The notes under the pieces were generated by a model that worked only from the letters and a program-made list of their open reading frames with translations, was not told where the DNA came from and searched no databases. The position numbers and the translations under genes were made by a program. Positions 4,471 to 29,226 of a stretch of 64,000 nucleotides of DNA are shown piece after piece; the stretch's first letter is position 1, and every line of letters begins with the position of its first letter. Source of the DNA: a plasmid; sequence record NZ_CP096760.1. The stretch is one strand, 5' to 3'.

Positions 4471-5580
4471 ATGCGATTTTGCAATATGAGCGATCAAGAA
4501 AGTTTAGCGGAGATATTAGACCGCATTGATATGGAGTATTGGCTTAACCGCGAAGGGTTTGAATACAAAGTAACTCGCGGAAAAAACGGAATCCAGTTGA
4601 ATGTTAAGGAATGTCCGGTATGTGGTAACTCAAGCTGGAAAGTCTATCTGAATCAGGATACGGGTTTGGGTAACTGCTTTCATGGTGATTGCGAAACCAA
4701 ATTCTCGAAATGGAAGTTTATTAAGGCTGGTATAGGCGGTAATAGCCTAAGCAATAAAGAGATAGTCGAGCATGTTAAAGCAATTGCTCAGGAGCAGGGC
4801 TGGCAGCCAAAGCGCAAAAGTGAACCCACACAAACCAAAATTGGCGATCTAAAGCTTCCAAAAGCCTATGACTTGCCGATCATGGGTCAGAACCTAAAGT
4901 ACCTTAAAGAGCGAAATATAACGCTCGATACGTGTCGTGAATTTGGACTGAAATTCTGTCAAAAGGGTTGGTTTGCATACATAGGCCCAACGGGTGAAAA
5001 GCAATACCAAAACTACAGCATGAGAATCATCATTCCTGTCAGGGACCTTGAAGGCAAGCTTGTGTCTTTTCAGGGTCGGGACATTACAGGAAAGGCTGAA
5101 AAGAAGTATCTATTTCCTCCTGGTTTCGCGTCTACGGGCACTTACCTATATAACGGCCATAATGCCCTAGGTTACGTTGAAATCGTCATGGGAGAGGGTG
5201 CTTTTGACGCTATGGCGATATATCAAGCCTTCAAGGAAGACGAGTTCCTTTGCAATGTTGGAGTTGTCGCGTCATTTGGTAAGCATCTTTCGGTAGGTGG
5301 TGATGAATCTCAAATGGCTGAACTACTAAAGCTTAAAGATGAGGGATTGGAGTGCGTGACGATTATGTGGGATGGAGAGCCTGCCGCAATTCTGTCTGCG
5401 ATCGACGCATGTTTAAAGATAAATAGCTTTGGCATAAAAGCAAGGTTGGCCACGTTGCCTGCTGGATGTGACCCCAATGAAGTCGACCCTGAAATCGTTC
5501 GCACAGCGTATCGAAAAGCGATACCAATTACGCCAATTAGCGCAGTAAGTTTACGCATTAAGTATATGGGTAAAGTCTGA
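4471..5580 (+). CDS. DNA primase (zinc-ribbon plus Toprim)
   Basis: CPVCGNSSWKV...CFHGDC zinc ribbon; Toprim-like IVMGEGAFDAMAIYQ and MWDGEPAA. The true start may be the internal Met at 4486. Confidence 0.75.
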   Translation: MRFCNMSDQESLAEILDRIDMEYWLNREGFEYKVTRGKNGIQLNVKECPVCGNSSWKVYLNQDTGLGNCFHGDCETKFSKWKFIKAGIGGNSLSNKEIVEHVKAIAQEQGWQPKRKSEPTQTKIGDLKLPKAYDLPIMGQNLKYLKERNITLDTCREFGLKFCQKGWFAYIGPTGEKQYQNYSMRIIIPVRDLEGKLVSFQGRDITGKAEKKYLFPPGFASTGTYLYNGHNALGYVEIVMGEGAFDAMAIYQAFKEDEFLCNVGVVASFGKHLSVGGDESQMAELLKLKDEGLECVTIMWDGEPAAILSAIDACLKINSFGIKARLATLPAGCDPNEVDPEIVRTAYRKAIPITPISAVSLRIKYMGKV

Positions 5581-19500: not shown

Positions 19501-21858
19501 ATGTTAAACCACGCAATGTCAGTGCAATCTGACTTTTCGATAGGAAAATCATTATTAACGGTAGACAAAATTGTCGAAGCTGCAAAAGGCTTAGGCTATT
19601 CATCGGTCGCAATCGTTGATGACATGTCCTTACATGCATTGGTAGATTTTTCGAACAAAGCCACCAAAGCCAATATCAAGCCGGTGTTTGGTTGTCGTTT
19701 GCGTGTATATGACGATTCTAAATATCGTAAGCCCCCTGCCTCATCTGGTATTGCTGAAAAACGCAACTTGATGTTCTGCCCTAAAGTCTACGTAAAAAGC
19801 GAAAAAGGCATTAAAGGCTTATTCAAACTTCTTACAGACGCAAACTCTAAAGAGCAATATTACTACCACAGCCGTACTGATCTGGATGCTCTATGCAAAT
19901 TGGAAGATGTGGTCGTAACGACTGGTGATATGTACGGTCTGTTTAGTCACCCTGATCACGAAAGAATCTTAAAAGTATTAAAAGCGAGATTTGGTGATGA
20001 TTTATATATTGAATTTAGTCCGATCAATACGCCATTGTTCGACCGCTTAAACTACTTAGGCTATTTGGCGTATGAACGCGAAAAAATTAAAACCGTTGTC
20101 ACTTATCCTTTTAACTATCTTGAGAATGAAGATGCGGACACTTTGGATGTATTGAGCGCTATCGCAACCAATACCCAACTTGATTTGCACTATCGTCCTA
20201 TTCAATACGTAAAAGATTTTGGTTTTAAAGAGCCAAAATTCATTTTAGACCATACAAAAGCTGCTATTCAGCGTATGGCTAAATATGAGCGCGTCAATTC
20301 AGCGGAAGCTTGGAAAGAAGGTCTAAAGAATATTTCTGAGCTGGTGGACAAATGCCAATATATTTTTGAGAAGCAGCCAGTTTCCCTACCTAAGCTAAGC
20401 ACTGACGAATTTAAAACACTATGCGCGAAATGCTTGGAAGGCTGGAAGAAACGCTTTTCTAAAGAGATTCTTGGATATAAGCCAACGAAAGCTGAATTAG
20501 ATACAGTATATAAATCTCGCTTAGGCTATGAGCTTTCAATATTAAAAAAGATGGGCTTTGAGTCCTACTTCCTGCTCGTTGAAGACTTGGTGATGTGGTC
20601 TAAAAACAACGGCGTGATTGTAGGCCCTGGGCGAGGTTCTGTTGGAGGTTCATTAGTCGCTTATCTGCTTGGGATCACGGACGTTGATCCTATACGTTTT
20701 GGATTGATCTTCGAACGTTTCATCAATCCTGAACGTCTTGACTTGCCTGATGCCGATCTGGACTTCGCTTCAAGCGGTCGCTACAAGGTGATTGATTACC
20801 TTGTTGAAAAATATGGTGAAGATTATGTCGCTGGTATCTCGAACTATTCAACACTAGCTTCAGCCTCAGCCCTACGTGATACAGGTCGTATCAGCGGTTT
20901 GAACAACATGCAATTAAGTGCGACCAAGCTTGTGCTTAAAGAACATGGAACGTCACTTGACCTGAATACTTCTGCGGACGCTGTGCCTGAGCTAGACAAG
21001 TTCCGCAATGAACATCCTGTTATCTGGAAGCATGCAACTAAGCTTGCAGGCACAATGAAATCGTTTGGCCAACATGCGGCAGGTATTGTTGTTGCAGGCG
21101 AACCTATCGTTAATCGAGCCGTGCTCGAGACTAGAGGAAAGTCACCAGTCGTCAATTGGGACAAGCGTGTAGTTGAGGATTGGGGCTTGATCAAGATGGA
21201 CTTGCTCGGTCTTGCCACCTTAGATGTATTAAACATTGCATGTGACTATGTAAAAGAGCGACATGGTATTGAATTGGATCTATTAAAGATTCCACTTGAT
21301 GATGAAAAAACCATGCAAGCTTTGGGTCGCGGTGAAACTGTAGGTGTGTTTCAGCTAGAAAGTAGCGGCATGCAACAACTATTGAAGAATATCTCAAACG
21401 GTGGCGCTGTAACCTTTGATGACATTTGTGCTGTTACCGCTTTGTATAGACCGGGCCCTATGGATTCAGGCATGTTGGATGACTATGTGGACTTACGAAA
21501 AGGATTAAAAGAAGTCACCTACGCACATGAAGTCCTTGAACCTGTTCTGTCTGACACTTATGGCGTTGTTGTGTATCAAGAGCAAACGATGGCGCTTGCT
21601 CGTAAGTTGGCAGGGTTCTCAATGGCTGAATCAGATCACCTCAGAAAAGCGATTGGTAAAAAAGACCTTAAGAAAATGGCTGAATTGAAACCGAAGTTTA
21701 TTGATGGTGCTAAAGCGGGGTTTGTAGAGGTTGAACTTGAAGATGGCACAAAGTTAAAAGTGCATCGAATGGAGAAGTTCAAATGCACTGATGGCGTGAT
21801 GAGAACGGTAGAAGAAGCATTCGCTGAAAGCGCTGAAATTCAATACTTTTATTCATAA
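19501..21858 (+). CDS. dnaE: DNA polymerase III alpha (DnaE-type), N-terminal part (PHP plus polymerase core)
   Basis: PHP N-terminus; GLIKMDLLGLATLDV and LRKAIGKK motifs. Homology ends near ...FIDGAKAG, then about 45 non-homologous codons before the stop. Confidence 0.85.
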   Translation: MLNHAMSVQSDFSIGKSLLTVDKIVEAAKGLGYSSVAIVDDMSLHALVDFSNKATKANIKPVFGCRLRVYDDSKYRKPPASSGIAEKRNLMFCPKVYVKSEKGIKGLFKLLTDANSKEQYYYHSRTDLDALCKLEDVVVTTGDMYGLFSHPDHERILKVLKARFGDDLYIEFSPINTPLFDRLNYLGYLAYEREKIKTVVTYPFNYLENEDADTLDVLSAIATNTQLDLHYRPIQYVKDFGFKEPKFILDHTKAAIQRMAKYERVNSAEAWKEGLKNISELVDKCQYIFEKQPVSLPKLSTDEFKTLCAKCLEGWKKRFSKEILGYKPTKAELDTVYKSRLGYELSILKKMGFESYFLLVEDLVMWSKNNGVIVGPGRGSVGGSLVAYLLGITDVDPIRFGLIFERFINPERLDLPDADLDFASSGRYKVIDYLVEKYGEDYVAGISNYSTLASASALRDTGRISGLNNMQLSATKLVLKEHGTSLDLNTSADAVPELDKFRNEHPVIWKHATKLAGTMKSFGQHAAGIVVAGEPIVNRAVLETRGKSPVVNWDKRVVEDWGLIKMDLLGLATLDVLNIACDYVKERHGIELDLLKIPLDDEKTMQALGRGETVGVFQLESSGMQQLLKNISNGGAVTFDDICAVTALYRPGPMDSGMLDDYVDLRKGLKEVTYAHEVLEPVLSDTYGVVVYQEQTMALARKLAGFSMAESDHLRKAIGKKDLKKMAELKPKFIDGAKAGFVEVELEDGTKLKVHRMEKFKCTDGVMRTVEEAFAESAEIQYFYS

Positions 21859-21906
21859 AATCAATCACTTATATTAATCAAATTGAATTAAAAACAGGTT
21901 GTTTAA

Positions 21907-22482
21907 ATGGAAAACTGGAAAGCAATTAAGAACTACGAAGGCTTGTATGAAGTTTCAGACTTAGGGCGTGTGCGGTCGCTTGACCGCATGGTCGCTGTTC
22001 CTCATGGTGGTCAACGTCTAGCAAAAGGGCAAGTGTTAAAACCTAAACAACATCGTGATGGCTACCTGTGTGTATTTTTAAGTAAGAAACAGAAGCAAAT
22101 TTGTCCAATGATTCACAAGTTGGTGCTTGAAGCATTTGTCGGAGAAAGACCAAGTGGAATGCAAGCGTGTCACGGTAATGGAGATAAGACAGACAACAGA
22201 TTGGTTAATTTACGATGGGATACCGTTAAGGCAAATCATAGAGACAAGAAAAAACATGGAACTACAGCTCGCGGAACCAAAGTAAACACAAACAAACTTA
22301 AACATGAGCAGGTAGTGGCAATTCGCGAGAAGCGGAACAATGGTGTGACATTACAAGCGCTCGCGGAAGAATATGGCATTTCTAACAATGCCGTCAGTCA
22401 CATTGTTTTGGGTAAGAACTGGCAATGGGTTGGTGGACCAATCCAAGAAAGAATTTTCAAAGATCGAGGCGCTAACCAATGA
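21907..22482 (+). CDS. HNH homing endonuclease (NUMOD4 plus HNH_3 plus C-terminal HTH), I-HmuI-like
   Basis: WKAIKNYEGLYEVSDLGRVRSL; HKLVLEAFVG...CHGNGDKTDNRLVNLRW. The gene sits between the two dnaE parts. Confidence 0.8.
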   Translation: MENWKAIKNYEGLYEVSDLGRVRSLDRMVAVPHGGQRLAKGQVLKPKQHRDGYLCVFLSKKQKQICPMIHKLVLEAFVGERPSGMQACHGNGDKTDNRLVNLRWDTVKANHRDKKKHGTTARGTKVNTNKLKHEQVVAIREKRNNGVTLQALAEEYGISNNAVSHIVLGKNWQWVGGPIQERIFKDRGANQ

Positions 22483-23744
22483 AAATTAAATCATTAAATA
22501 TTTTGAATGATGGTTTAGAAGAATCAGTTGCCGAGCGTATTTGGGAACAAACAGAAGCAAACGCCAACTACCAATTTAACAAGTCGCATTCTGTGGAGTA
22601 TTCAATCATTTCGGTTTGGTGCGCATATATTCGCGTTCATTACCCTGCTGAATACTTTGCCGCAAGTCTTAGCGTGGTTGATACAGAAGATAAGCTCACT
22701 GGACTTGTGAAAGATGCGCGTGAATGCGGCATTGAGATTCTTCCTCCTGATATTAATTATTCAGCCGATCGTTATAAGATTAAATCCAATACTGAAATCT
22801 TGGCGCCTTTCAATGCAGTCAAAGGTATTTCAGAAACGATTGCCAAAGCGATTGTGAAATTGAGAGAGAAGAATCGGGCTTGGAAAGTCGTTCGCTACAA
22901 GAAGTCGAGAAAGACAGGTGAAACCACACCGGTCTATGGTCCTGATGGTTCAGTTCCACCAAAAAAACGTTTTGATAGCTTTGACGAGTTCGAGAAAGCA
23001 GCATCTCAACCAAACTCGAAAGTGAATAAAACAATCGTTGAAAATCTCAGAGCAATTGGGGCGTTTGCAAGCATTGAACCTAGTGAGCCTTCAGCGAAAG
23101 ACCTCTCACGACGAAAGGACCAAATGAGGCTATTACCAGGATTAATTATTGATTCTGTAAAAGCAGATAGATACACAGATACCTCAGAGCCATTCCTGCG
23201 AGCTTCGTTGGTCGAGCATATGCGCGATTGCAAGCAATGTAACGGTTGCGACCTTGCTGGACAGGTTCATCCTGATATTCGTTTGGGTAAAAAGATACGA
23301 TTTATGGTTGTTTCGGACTGTCCAACTTGGGAGGAAGAAAAGAAAGGAAAACTACTCGAAGGCGAATCTGCTCAATATGTCAAAGCTGCAATTAAAGAAA
23401 ATGAATTAGCTGTTGCGGACGGTTATTACACAACGCTCGTCAAAGCCAAAAAACAAGACAAGTTCTTAACGACAGGTCAAATCAATGGATGTAGTCCTCA
23501 TTTGGCCAAAGAAATCGAGCTTCTTAAACCGCCAGTCATTGTTGCCCTTGGAAGTCAGTCAATTCGCTACTTATTACCTGACGTTAAGGTATCCCCTAGC
23601 GATCTCGTAGGCATGACTTTCTACAACCCTAAATTAGACGCAACCATTGTTTGCGGACTTAACCCACAGCAATGCCATTTTGACCCTACAAAGCTGGAAG
23701 GACTTGTAAAAGCATTCAAGGAGGTTGCTGACATTATTTCTTAA
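22479..23744 (+). CDS. dnaE: DnaE-type polymerase, C-terminal part, fused to a UDG-like domain
   Basis: YQFNKSHSVEYSIISVWCAYIRVHYPAEYF matches the E. coli DnaE segment [28 protein letters not shown]. The start overlaps the HNH stop (ATGA). Confidence 0.8.
   Translation: MKIKSLNILNDGLEESVAERIWEQTEANANYQFNKSHSVEYSIISVWCAYIRVHYPAEYFAASLSVVDTEDKLTGLVKDARECGIEILPPDINYSADRYKIKSNTEILAPFNAVKGISETIAKAIVKLREKNRAWKVVRYKKSRKTGETTPVYGPDGSVPPKKRFDSFDEFEKAASQPNSKVNKTIVENLRAIGAFASIEPSEPSAKDLSRRKDQMRLLPGLIIDSVKADRYTDTSEPFLRASLVEHMRDCKQCNGCDLAGQVHPDIRLGKKIRFMVVSDCPTWEEEKKGKLLEGESAQYVKAAIKENELAVADGYYTTLVKAKKQDKFLTTGQINGCSPHLAKEIELLKPPVIVALGSQSIRYLLPDVKVSPSDLVGMTFYNPKLDATIVCGLNPQQCHFDPTKLEGLVKAFKEVADIIS
23196..23744 (+). 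other. Degenerate family-4 UDG-like domain at the polymerase C-terminus
   Basis: CKQCNGCDL (Fe-S-like Cys motif); MVVSDCPTWEEE sits where UDG4 has GEAPGxxE; HFDPTKL near the end. Confidence 0.45.
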
Positions 23745-25939: not shown

Positions 25940-27025
25940 TTGAAAGAAAGCCGCTATAGCTGCGGCTTTCTTTTTGGGGAGATTAACGTGGAAAATCTAA
26001 TTATTCTCGTTGACGCCAATTCAATCGGTTACGCAGCGCAGCACGCTATCAAGCTCTATTCAGGCTCAATGCAGACTCAGGCGGTGTTTAGCTTTATCAA
26101 GACAATGCGCGAGTTAAGACAACGCTATCCGCATGCAGGCATGGTTGTTTTATGGGACGGTCGTGCTGAATGGCGTTTTGAGCGTGAACCTTCATACAAG
26201 AGCAATCGCAAATCTGATCCAAGAATGCAACAAGAGCATGACGCTTACAAAGCGCAGTGCCCTTTTATTAAACGTGCTTTAAAAGCGTTGGGCATTAAGC
26301 AAATGACTAGCGCGATACATGAAGCAGATGATCTTGCTGGCATTCTTGTACAACGTTTCGCAAGCGATCCCAACAATCGTATTTTATTGATTACCGGTGA
26401 CCGTGACTGGTTACAGCTAGTTAAGCCAAACGTTTCGTGGCGTGACCCTCGTGATGAAAGCCGTTTCATTCATTGGGCTAATTTTTATGAGAAAACAGGC
26501 TTCAAATCACCTGTGGCATTTCTTCAAGGCAAAGCATTACAAGGCGATTCTTCGGACTGCATCAGCGGTGTTGGGGGAATTGGTGAAGCGACCGCAATCA
26601 AGATTCTTGCTGAATACGGTTCAGTAAATGAGTTCTGGAAACTATGCGACGCTGGATTAAAGCCACCTTCAAAAGCTTTGCGATCACTTTATGCAGGCAA
26701 TTCCCCATACACAAAAGAGGAATGGGAAAGCCAATTCATCTATGTGGAAGACAGCTCACTAACGGATGAGCAAAACGAAAAGGCGCGAAATAAAGCGCTG
26801 AAAGCACACATGGATGCATATGTAGGTCAAGGGCGCAGACTGTTCTTGAGAAACCTAGAACTTATGCAATTGCTACGTCCTGCCCCTCTTCAAAAAGAAC
26901 ACCTCGAAATCATCCAAGGCGAAATCAATCCGGATGACTTTACCGAGTTATGCGGCGAGTTAGCTTTTGGCTCGATTCTCAAAAACGTACCGAATTTCAT
27001 GAAACCTTTTTATAACGGACAATGA
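25940..27025 (+). CDS. 5'-3' exonuclease / flap endonuclease (phage RNase H-like)
   Basis: LIILVDANSIGY, ITGDRDWLQLV and the helix-hairpin-helix region. The true start may be downstream of 25940. Confidence 0.8.
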   Translation: MKESRYSCGFLFGEINVENLIILVDANSIGYAAQHAIKLYSGSMQTQAVFSFIKTMRELRQRYPHAGMVVLWDGRAEWRFEREPSYKSNRKSDPRMQQEHDAYKAQCPFIKRALKALGIKQMTSAIHEADDLAGILVQRFASDPNNRILLITGDRDWLQLVKPNVSWRDPRDESRFIHWANFYEKTGFKSPVAFLQGKALQGDSSDCISGVGGIGEATAIKILAEYGSVNEFWKLCDAGLKPPSKALRSLYAGNSPYTKEEWESQFIYVEDSSLTDEQNEKARNKALKAHMDAYVGQGRRLFLRNLELMQLLRPAPLQKEHLEIIQGEINPDDFTELCGELAFGSILKNVPNFMKPFYNGQ

Positions 27026-29226
27026 TTATGGAACCAAATTTATCTGCATTAGCTGACGACTTAGAAAAATTAATTGGCGACAACGAAGAAACGCAAACAG
27101 TGACTAACTGGCTTGATACTGGCGATCCAGAGTTAAACTTTGCGATTTCTGGACGCTATGACGGCGGTATTCCTTATGGTCGCATTGTTGAAATGTATGG
27201 TCCACCGTCATCAGGTAAAACCGCAGAGGCGACTGACTTAATGATTCGCGCCCAAGAAGCTGGCGGTATTGCCATGTTCTTTGACTGGGAACGTTCCTTT
27301 GATATTAACCTTGCGAAGAATCTAGGCTTAAAGACGGAGCGTCCATTCTGGATTTATAAAAAGCCTGAAACTTGGGAAGAAGGCAATGTTTTAGCAATGC
27401 GTGCAGTTGAGTTGATCCGCAATTCAGCAACAATTCCAGACGATGCGCCAATCATTTGCGTGTTTGACTCGGTTGCATCGGCAATTCCTCAATCTGTTTA
27501 CTATGACAATAAGGGCAAAAAGCGTGAAATCGACACATTCAATATGAGCGATAACACCGCTCTGGCTCGTGCTTCCAGTACGTCATTGAAAGTAATTGCT
27601 CAGACGGCTGAAAAGTACAATGCAACGTTCTTATATTTGAACCAACAGCGTACGAAAATTGGAGTGATGTTCGGTGATCCAACCTGTCTGAGAGCGGAAG
27701 TTCAGGTGCCATTCGTCGATGGTACGTCCGCAACCATGAAGCAAATTGTTGATGGCAAAATCAGCAAGGAAGTATGGTCTTGGAATGAAGTATCGGGTCA
27801 GCTTGAGCCAAAACGCATCATCGGTTGGCACAACAATGGCTCAATCAAAGGAACTGACAAAGAGTGGTATCACATCCGCGCTGTATGTCCTGAAACGCGC
27901 AATGGCATGGTTGCGGTATCGGGCACAAATGATCACAAAGTCCAAGTGAAAGACAAAGGTTGGATTAATTTTAGCGACGTTCGTGTAGGCGACTATGTGA
28001 TTACTCGCACCAAACGCACCTTTGCAGGAACAGCGCTTGAGTTCTTAAAGGGGTTGATCGGTTTTGACAGTCACATGGCGCGCGTGTCGTCGCAACGTCA
28101 GACAGCCGCACTGATCATTCAGGACAATGAAAACCCTGAATACGCACAGTGGAAGGTTGATCTGCTGTCACGCCACCTAAACTTCGTCAAGCGCGAAATC
28201 ACTATTAGCAAGGGCAATAAAGGGCATCGCTACGAGTCCTGTTACACCCATGAGTTGATGAAGTTTTACGACTTGTGCCGCTGTCCTCACACACTGTTCA
28301 AAGATGGCTGGACACCTATGCAATTAGCCATTGCAGTGATGGACGATGGTAATTACAAGGAGAGCAGCAAGACACTGAACCTGTCCTTTAAGCGACTGCG
28401 TGGCTGTGAGGATGAATTAGACGCAATCGGTCAATCGCTGTATCAATCATTTGGCTTAACTTATGATATTCGTTACGGTCAGGGTCGTATTGACTTTGAT
28501 GTAAAAGGTACTGCCAAGATCGCTGAATTGATCGCTCAGTACGTGCCAGACTGTATGCAGTACAAGTTACCGATTGAGTATCGCGGACGCTATGTAGCGC
28601 TCGAATTAGACGCTCCTGTTGATGAATCAGTTGTGCATTATGCAGAAGTGACAGAAATGCGCTTGGGAAGTAAAAATAAAGGCTCGGTAATGTATGACAT
28701 TACCGTTGAGGATAATCACAACTTCTTGGCAGGCAATACGCACAACGGTTTCTTGGTGCATAACTGCACACCAGGCGGTTCTTCTTTTGAATATTACGCA
28801 TCAGTACGAATTGCTCTTGGCCGTACCAAGTTAATGGAAACGGTCAACGGTAAAAAGCAGTTTGTGGGGCAGGATATTGCAACTAAAATTGTGAAAACCA
28901 AACTCACAAAACCGTTCCAAGAAACCACTATGCGTATGTGGTTTGACAAGAATGGCGTAGCGTTCTTTGACCGCCACTACAACTTAGTTGAGTTCTTAAA
29001 AGCTAAAGGCATTTTGAAACAGTCGGGCGCTTACATTGAATGGACTGACGGTAAGAAATATCACCTGAAATCGCTTTGCGACAAACTGAAAGCAGATCCA
29101 ACCGGATTGCAGCAGCTCCGCGCATTAATCCCTAAGATTTCACCAAGCGCTGATGACATTGAGGTCACACCGTTGATGAGCAATGAAGATGAAATGGAAG
29201 CTTTGTACAGTGACGATGCGTGTTAG
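27022..29226 (+). CDS. recA: RecA-family recombinase interrupted by an intein
   Basis: Walker A GPPSSGKT. Exteins join to KIGVMFGDPT/CTPGGSSFEYYASVRI, matching the E. coli RecA segment [26 protein letters not shown]. Confidence 0.85.
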   Translation: MIMEPNLSALADDLEKLIGDNEETQTVTNWLDTGDPELNFAISGRYDGGIPYGRIVEMYGPPSSGKTAEATDLMIRAQEAGGIAMFFDWERSFDINLAKNLGLKTERPFWIYKKPETWEEGNVLAMRAVELIRNSATIPDDAPIICVFDSVASAIPQSVYYDNKGKKREIDTFNMSDNTALARASSTSLKVIAQTAEKYNATFLYLNQQRTKIGVMFGDPTCLRAEVQVPFVDGTSATMKQIVDGKISKEVWSWNEVSGQLEPKRIIGWHNNGSIKGTDKEWYHIRAVCPETRNGMVAVSGTNDHKVQVKDKGWINFSDVRVGDYVITRTKRTFAGTALEFLKGLIGFDSHMARVSSQRQTAALIIQDNENPEYAQWKVDLLSRHLNFVKREITISKGNKGHRYESCYTHELMKFYDLCRCPHTLFKDGWTPMQLAIAVMDDGNYKESSKTLNLSFKRLRGCEDELDAIGQSLYQSFGLTYDIRYGQGRIDFDVKGTAKIAELIAQYVPDCMQYKLPIEYRGRYVALELDAPVDESVVHYAEVTEMRLGSKNKGSVMYDITVEDNHNFLAGNTHNGFLVHNCTPGGSSFEYYASVRIALGRTKLMETVNGKKQFVGQDIATKIVKTKLTKPFQETTMRMWFDKNGVAFFDRHYNLVEFLKAKGILKQSGAYIEWTDGKKYHLKSLCDKLKADPTGLQQLRALIPKISPSADDIEVTPLMSNEDEMEALYSDDAC
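27685..28764 (+). other. Intein (360 aa) with LAGLIDADG-type homing endonuclease motifs
   Basis: Starts with Cys (CLRAEV), ends ...VHN followed by +1 Cys. Internal LKGLIGFDSH and LAIAVMDDGN blocks. Confidence 0.8.

Follow-up and report, generated by a model that had tools for sequence, protein, structure and literature searches.

A dnaE gene in two pieces around a free-standing homing endonuclease gene in an Acinetobacter phage-plasmid: a probable decayed fractured gene with a putative split-intein relic at the break

Layout of the split polymerase gene

The subject of this report is a broken DNA polymerase gene, dnaE, in a stretch of 64,000 nucleotides (nt) from the plasmid record NZ_CP096760.1, to which we refer as the window. 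The gene is written as two open reading frames (ORFs), ORF1 and ORF2, and the gap between them holds a complete gene for a homing endonuclease of the I-HmuI-like NUMOD4/HNH type (Table 1). The two ORFs, the complete endonuclease gene and an ATGA overlap at the start of ORF2 had been reported in a preliminary description of this DNA, and the sequence bears these statements out. ORF1 closes with ...KFIDGAKAGFVEVELEDG...AEIQYFYS and a stop codon, and ORF2 opens with MKIKSLNILNDGLEESVAERIW...YQFNKSHS, its ATG sharing letters with the endonuclease stop codon as it also does in the related loci L016, L017, L179 and L183. Read across both ORFs, the order of DnaE domains recognized by Pfam is intact (PHP, palm/NTPase, fingers, helix-hairpin-helix); DNA polymerase III (Pol III) alpha is matched in the Protein Data Bank (PDB) at 2e-61, and by Foldseek with template modelling (TM) scores of 0.66–0.75. 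The two products together, 785 + 421 aa, compare with 1151 aa (P0241) or 1172 aa (SSU5) in contiguous relatives.

Table 1. Features of the split dnaE locus, in window coordinates
Feature	Position	Strand	Description
dnaE N-terminal ORF1	19501..21858	+	785 aa; PHP, palm/NTPase (Pol III alpha NTPase), first part of fingers, putative relic tail (Pfam)
Mosaic patch	21245..22595	+	~55-65% nt identity plus 788-nt indel against the sister allele that has no homing endonuclease gene (sliding identity)
Putative intein relic, N part (ORF1 tail GFVEVELEDGTKLKVHRMEKFKCTDGVMRTVEEAFAESAEIQYFYS)	21718..21855	+	46 aa; four short beta strands and a helix (AlphaFold); net charge -4
ORF1 stop and spacer	21856..21906	+	TAA, then 48-nt A+T-rich spacer; more in-frame stops; weak AGG ribosome-binding motif for the endonuclease gene
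I-HmuI-like HNH homing endonuclease gene	21907..22482	+	191 aa, NUMOD4-HNH_3-HTH (helix-turn-helix); free-standing
ORF2 translation start	22466..22481	+	GAGG 9 nt upstream of ATG; ATG overlaps endonuclease stop (ATGA)
dnaE C-terminal ORF2	22479..23744	+	421 aa; remaining fingers with FNKSHS, helix-hairpin-helix, uracil-DNA glycosylase-superfamily domain (Pfam)
Putative intein relic, C part (ORF2 head MKIKSLNILN)	22479..22508	+	Predicted 10-residue beta strand; net charge +2

All divergence values given here compare the window with L016 (A. brisouii) and L017 (metagenomic), which are diverged relatives that share the arrangement. Nonsynonymous divergence (pN) is 0.12–0.25 in ORF1 and 0.21–0.28 in ORF2, with synonymous divergence (pS) saturated in both. 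The spacer behind ORF1 has no stable fold and does no better than its shuffles (z=+1.17), and a promoter and terminator scan gave no signal above chance. The sequence data thus far support a polymerase that is made as two polypeptides from adjacent ORFs, between which a freestanding homing endonuclease is encoded, which was one of the two options that the preliminary description had offered.

The window matches a plasmid of Acinetobacter sp. FDAARGOS_560 at 100% identity and ~110-kb plasmids of A. baumannii at ~99%; a near-identity DNA search among phages returned no match. Its DnaE shares 40–44% identity with the enzymes of Salmonella phage SSU5 and of phages from Klebsiella, Rhizobium and Pseudomonas, and its neighbours are typical of the SSU5-related group, namely an AAA_5/CbbQ-type ATPase, a gp32-like protein, a 5'-3' exonuclease and RecA. 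By these matches, we take the window to be part of a ~110-kb SSU5-related phage-plasmid of Acinetobacter. The usual form of the polymerase among its relatives is a single ~1150-aa fusion of DnaE with a uracil-DNA glycosylase (UDG), and the best 120 database relatives are all unsplit, 119 of them with the canonical GKK-to-FNKSH spacing or an ordinary length. The fusion is likewise the rule among ~1150-aa relatives on 100–112-kb contigs. In the window the UDG-superfamily domain forms the polymerase C-terminus (~23292..23612, ORF2 residues 272–378), and Pfam found neither an OB-fold nor a tau-binding region in that part of the protein. Some plasmid records name ORF2 only as a 'uracil-DNA glycosylase family protein', and many plasmid gene tables in PLSDB (e.g. 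L014 2750..4108) contain no coding sequence for the N-terminal part of dnaE; the split gene is probably annotated as a pseudogene in such records.

The peptides that flank the break

The most interesting part of the locus, in our reading, is found in the peptides at the break. The 45 codons that follow ...AKAG at the end of ORF1 had been described as non-homologous, a label that they lose on comparison with relatives: they are conserved in the uninterrupted DnaE of the SSU5 type and in ~25 clusters of split N-fragments. Their pN of 0.20–0.27 against a pS of 0.75–0.95 is like that of the gene body and of the endonuclease gene. When the region was modelled with AlphaFold as one fused chain (342 aa, 59-sequence alignment), the mean predicted local distance difference test (pLDDT) score was 91; the tail of ORF1 was predicted as four short strands and a helix at a pLDDT of ~80–90, and the head of ORF2 as one 10-residue strand (E211-220, pLDDT ~85) beside the four-strand tail. 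Confidence is lowest in the last ten residues of ORF1, exactly at the break.

What this small fold resembles is an intein. A Foldseek search of the fused model against the PDB placed Pol III alpha and PolC at the top; nearly all of the matches below these are inteins, among them Npu and Ssp DnaE, MchDnaB-1 and gp41-1, with 57–60 aligned columns at a probability of ~1; the alignments cover ~59 columns of contiguous inteins as opposed to ~41 of an N-terminal intein half (IntN) alone. With a model of this extra segment by itself, which we call the module, the top 15 matches are DnaE inteins. A profile of 28 module sequences, which is independent of any structural model, was searched against 177,635 PDB sequences and matched 13 DnaE-intein sequences at E=1.6e-4 to 1.6e-3, with the next match at 0.067; the matched part of the Ssp DnaE intein is residues 59–96. 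The comparison can also be made with genuine inteins of DnaE, recovered by the search of cluster representatives described below and present at FNK/C in the N-fragments P0434, P0435, P0437, P0441, P0442, P0408, P0416 and P0460 and in the contiguous P0424 and P0448. The ends of genuine IntN parts (~40 last residues, e.g. EIELDNGMIIKCTLDHKFYCSDGKPHTVKEIMEKELEII) score 20–34 bits against the module, and for two of these the E-value is still ~1.4e-3 when a space of 1.84 billion sequences is assumed. From profile and predicted fold together, the ORF1 tail and the first ~10 codons of ORF2 appear to be homologous to the break-flanking part of DnaE-type split inteins. The preliminary description had placed the break close to the cyanobacterial split-DnaE intein site; this holds, and the flanks of the break would themselves be a relic of that intein family.

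Any such intein has lost its chemistry. The module begins with G-[FWY] and has no Cys or Ser at position 1, the T-x-x-H of intein block B is aligned to H-x-x-R/K, and the module alignments contain none of blocks A, F and G, the terminal Asn or a Cys/Ser/Thr nucleophile at +1. Canonical DnaE resumes directly on both sides, ORF2 running through ...ILN-DGLEES into the polymerase. Because all catalytic intein elements are gone, protein splicing at this locus would not be possible, as judged from these alignments. The module sits between residues 790 and 792 of Taq Pol III alpha, which correspond to E. coli ~733/734, and 22 residues before F756 of FNKSHS; since it lies inside the fingers and ahead of FNKSHS, the active site would need both chains. 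In nine lineages the tails carry a net charge of -2 to -7 and the heads one of +1 to +4; MK[IV]K-like heads are likewise conserved in nine lineages. An acidic/basic polarity of this kind is described for the capture step of split-intein assembly (PMC11766414).

A genuine split intein occurs elsewhere in the same gene in many sister plasmids, at GPGRGS/VGGSLVAY, with an IntN part that begins CFLAGH... and a C-terminal part (IntC) that ends ...GIPVHN/CGGS. It lies at 416-4059 in L014 and 1260-4921 in L016 and is also present in L013; the corresponding site in the window (~20643/20644, within ORF1) is empty. Between the split-intein halves of these relatives there is a free-standing ORF of 295 aa without a Pfam or PDB match, and DnaE is encoded there in three pieces.

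The split and its endonuclease gene across relatives

The break is found far beyond the plasmid at hand. We surveyed 80 IMG/VR loci that were chosen as carriers of the module; about 52 are unsplit and SSU5-like, and the others are broken at the same residue. What fills the gap in the broken loci varies. The HNH gene of the Acinetobacter plasmids is present in full in four and in degenerate form in three, the HNH gene of the Klebsiella phage record vB_KpnS_p4727 (p4727), which is itself a split allele, in nine, and a third NUMOD4/HNH_3 gene in L033; an HNH gene of another architecture, with the nuclease at the C-terminus, is found in L026, L092 and also L181. Eight loci (L052, L053, L061, L069, L070, L074, L076 and L077) have no endonuclease in the gap, only a spacer of 70 nt in which AAGAGG precedes the ATG (4234..4319 in L052), a form also seen in the Cronobacter sp. 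JZ38 plasmid NZ_CP017663.1. L182 has no endonuclease either, and its stop and start codons overlap as TAATG at 5355. A search for ORF1-like ends among 1.84 billion cluster representatives recovered ~25 clusters (50% identity) of N-fragments of 745–791 aa that end 2–10 residues past the module, together with unsplit module carriers in one clear cluster (P0397, SSU5 type) plus P0275. Genome contigs scanned with a generic DnaE motif gave nothing but ordinary bacterial dnaE genes that lack the module. Across the module-based locus survey and the cluster search, no split without the module was seen.

A split at one position that comes with at least two HNH architectures, with several HNH lineages or with none is, by this distribution, older and wider than the endonuclease that the window now carries. 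It follows that the claim of a gene split by this endonuclease, made in the preliminary description, has become doubtful. That description had also named beforehand, as something that would refute it, two-ORF splits in related genomes that lack an endonuclease gene; such splits exist. We also considered the internal Met of the unsplit SSU5 DnaE as a fossil start codon, an idea weakened by the many unsplit alleles that have Ile there.

The endonuclease gene has its own history. Its product matches NUMOD4 (4.3e-18) and HNH_3 (2.2e-10) in Pfam and the I-HmuI structure 1U3E over residues 3-170 (E=5.6e-11), with the aligned H...N...N...N residues kept. It is an ORF of its own, separated from ORF1 by several stop codons and flanked by coding sequence, and its pN/pS of ~0.25 points to purifying selection. 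Its orthologues (72–78% aa identity) are inserted at the identical position and likewise overlap the next ORF by ATGA. Among Acinetobacter plasmid records, 18 carry the full gene, 12 carry one with a 391-nt internal deletion that keeps both dnaE ORFs as well as the stop and start, and 11 carry an uninterrupted dnaE that is 788 nt shorter. Compared with the uninterrupted allele (L015), the window is ~100% identical up to ~21240 and again from ~22596 on, and the patch between is mosaic. A tree of the gene body reads ((window, uninterrupted), L017), L016; in a tree of the patch, the window pairs with L017 and the uninterrupted allele with L016. This conflict between the two trees makes it most likely that the uninterrupted Acinetobacter allele arose through replacement of the patch. 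What looks like the opposite event is visible in Klebsiella, where p4727 and pJN2-26 are 98–100% identical outside the flanks of a 233-aa HNH gene and 68–73% identical over ~355 nt upstream and ~175 nt downstream of it. These alleles and patches mark the free-standing endonuclease gene as mobile.

Several further observations concern the surroundings of these genes. In the uninterrupted allele of L015 (4890..6150, NZ_CP027182.1), the 3' end of dnaE, which is the UDG-like part, is cut off by ISAba26. In L016 (A. brisouii) a strong hairpin stands just upstream of the endonuclease gene (4930..4975, -30 kcal/mol, z=-4.05) and resembles the regulatory hairpins of mobE and of fractured-gene endonucleases; the window has no such hairpin. 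No paralogue of the break-site endonuclease or of its flanking intein-like peptides was found elsewhere within the window. The recA gene of the window (27022..29226, plus strand, 734 aa) is interrupted in frame by an intein that includes a LAGLIDADG endonuclease domain (Intein_splicing at 8.6e-9 over residues 231-581, LAGLIDADG_2 over 342-488), which is a second selfish element in the same replication and recombination module as the split dnaE.

Known systems, competing explanations and meaning

The known system that comes closest is what Dassa et al. 2009 (PMC2677866) describe as a fractured gene. There, adjacent gene halves end and start with split-intein parts, a free-standing homing endonuclease gene lies between them, and DnaE is among the hosts; the inteins are complete and active, and gp41-7 is an endonuclease-less derivative whose halves are still adjacent. 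The likeness extends to replication-gene halves that are adjacent in a phage context, to an endonuclease gene exactly between IntN-like and IntC-like peptides and to endonuclease-less derivatives, L052 and L182 being our counterparts of gp41-7. The differences are that the putative intein relic here comprises ~55 residues, has lost all catalytic residues and leaves halves that are not ligatable, and that the endonuclease is I-HmuI-like HNH rather than Vsr-like or GIY-YIG. The insertion point here is none of the sites that were compared; the positions of the three DnaE sites of PMC2677866 are not given in its text. Genes in pieces are also described for T4-like phages (PMC2988022), namely nrdA with mobE in Aeh1, T4 genes 39/60 with mobA and genes 43A/43B of Aeromonas phage 25. 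In these, too, an essential enzyme of DNA metabolism is made as two polypeptides around an HNH gene while relatives are uninterrupted, and for gene 43, as here, it is doubtful whether the endonuclease caused the break or moved into a gap that was already there; they differ in having no intein-derived ends, and the present case concerns a C-family (DnaE) polymerase of phage-plasmids that is split over ~25 clusters.

Two more systems share parts of the arrangement. The split DnaE of cyanobacteria (Ssp, Npu) is the same protein with its fingers broken within ~25–32 residues of the same place, its intein matches the relic over residues ~59–96, and the IntN end is acidic and the IntC start basic. 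The cyanobacterial dnaE halves are encoded far apart and are joined covalently by trans-splicing at FNK/C, whereas here the halves are adjacent, the break lies upstream of FNKSHS and the splicing chemistry is absent. I-HmuI of phage SPO1 is encoded inside a group I intron of a family A polymerase gene. Its NUMOD4-HNH_3-HTH architecture and its place in a phage DNA polymerase gene recur in the window, but the endonuclease described here stands alone, in the space that separates the two DnaE ORFs (compare PDB 1U3E).

We consider it quite probable that the locus is a decayed fractured gene, in other words, a two-subunit polymerase with a free-standing homing endonuclease gene, a splicing-dead intein relic of ~55 aa and a putative non-covalent docking of the two chains. 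The endonuclease gene would be translated separately, and the ATGA overlap, aided by GAGG, probably couples translation of ORF2 to it; neither RNA splicing nor protein splicing of the polymerase halves would take place. The relic would correspond to the last ~40 residues of IntN plus the first strand of IntC, which is the region around the natural break and endonuclease site of DnaE-type split inteins. We propose that the acidic tail and the basic head find each other by electrostatic capture and then pair their beta strands, as in live split inteins, and that the palm from ORF1 and the FNKSHS fingers from ORF2 dock non-covalently to form one active site. The predicted fold would suit a relic that now probably does nothing but hold the polymerase pieces together. 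The intercistronic gap, in turn, may act as a landing pad to and from which free-standing endonuclease genes travel by gene conversion, dragging their flanks along. Our confidence is evenly divided on the more specific proposal that the ~55-aa remnant is an exapted, splicing-dead split intein that was selected as the heterodimerisation handle of a non-covalent two-subunit polymerase.

A number of points weigh against an intein relic that bridges the break. The Pfam Hint and intein families match 0 of the 28 module sequences even at E<=10, the module profile misses the unrelated, genuine split intein found at another dnaE site in relatives, and the homology claim rests on one intein family and on scores of 24–34 bits over 40 residues. 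The relic lies ~23–25 residues upstream of FNK/C, so a separate insertion or rearrangement must be assumed. The unsplit SSU5 and P0275 keep the module, which is therefore not strictly tied to the break. The putative contact of tail and head comes from a model of the two as a single chain, the likeness of the head to IntC is seen in that model and in the MK[IV]K pattern only, and of the ~135 residues that make up a Hint fold the module retains only ~55.

How do other explanations fare? The preliminary description had proposed, as its second option, that ~790 nt carrying the HNH ORF are a group I intron spliced from the mRNA. The junction letters that it gave are present (GCGGGGT ends at 21721, a G stands at 22509 and ATGGTTTAGAA runs from 22510), so that an in-frame junction bounded by U and G can be drawn; the stretch between the two ends measures 788 nt, which is also how much shorter the uninterrupted sister-plasmid allele is, and I-HmuI is intron-encoded. 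The U(-1)/omega-G rule is, however, easily met by chance, and the covariance-model scan that the description had suggested finds no group I or group II intron of Rfam at E<=10 in 21400..22800 and none at E<=1 in the related loci L001, L016 and L017. Non-coding room amounts to 48 nt in the window and to 0 and 21 nt in the counterpart spaces of p4727. Moreover, the proposed intron would take out 45+10 codons under purifying selection, and its 5' 135 nt, the 45 tail codons, are selected at the protein level and read in frame and unbroken in the DnaE of SSU5 and pJN2-26. The arrangement is kept after the 391-nt deletion, and splits without an HNH gene include L182, whose two dnaE ORFs have no sequence between them. 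For these reasons we reject an RNA intron, to which we give next to no chance.

If the HNH gene had simply cut an intact dnaE, as in the case of mobE in Aeh1 nrdA, the 45-aa tail would be a lineage-specific surface insertion unrelated to inteins or to assembly. The uninterrupted alleles in sister plasmids and SSU5, the mobility of the endonuclease gene with its co-conversion patches and the lack of a Pfam Hint match all suit such a de novo split, which we nevertheless regard as improbable given that ~25 diverged clusters are broken at the same residue whichever HNH architecture, if any, accompanies the break, that no module-less split was seen and that the module matches DnaE inteins in sequence and fold. 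Alternatively, the host polymerase might replicate the element, leaving the two ORFs as decaying remnants. The omission of the N-part from many PLSDB gene tables, which suggests pseudogene calls, and the one allele truncated by ISAba26 fit such decay; purifying selection on both halves across synonymous saturation, a stop, ribosome-binding site and ATG architecture conserved in nine lineages, a split allele in the phage record vB_KpnS_p4727 and a split that outlasts decay of the endonuclease gene make a pseudogene very unlikely. A further alternative is a functional, atypical split intein that ligates the halves by protein trans-splicing. Intein-like flanks are there, and a genuine split intein is in use at another site of this gene in relatives, but a module with just ~55 of ~135 Hint-fold residues, no Cys or Ser at position 1, H..R/K in place of the T..H of block B, no blocks F and G, no terminal Asn and no +1 Cys/Ser/Thr, with canonical DnaE resuming immediately on both sides, renders ligation scarcely credible.

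Returning to the decayed fractured gene, a search of the literature library that was available found no paper on an intein relic at a split site or on a split dnaE in phage-plasmids. The split arrangement is frequently met in phage-plasmids of ~110 kb from Acinetobacter baumannii and Klebsiella, where annotation pipelines label the pieces 'dnaE', 'NUMOD4 protein' or 'uracil-DNA glycosylase family protein', or seem to drop the N-part. The natural acidic and basic pair, of ~45+10 residues and apparently descended from the split inteins that have been studied best, is a candidate for a small, non-splicing protein-association tag and also offers a test of the capture-and-collapse model; if our explanation is true, the minimal pair of an IntN end and an IntC start is a natural 'capture' module. 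The explanation would also mean that a C-family replicative polymerase can work when cut through its fingers, a few residues from the cyanobacterial cut, which bears on the tolerance of the polymerase fold. For the evolution of inteins, the locus suggests a fate of fractured genes after splicing is lost: the break may persist in the host, along with no more of the intein than the stretch that pairs the halves. If true, this would add an unrecognised end stage to a series that leads from intein to fractured gene, on to a relic-bridged split gene and, as in SSU5, to an occasional re-fusion.

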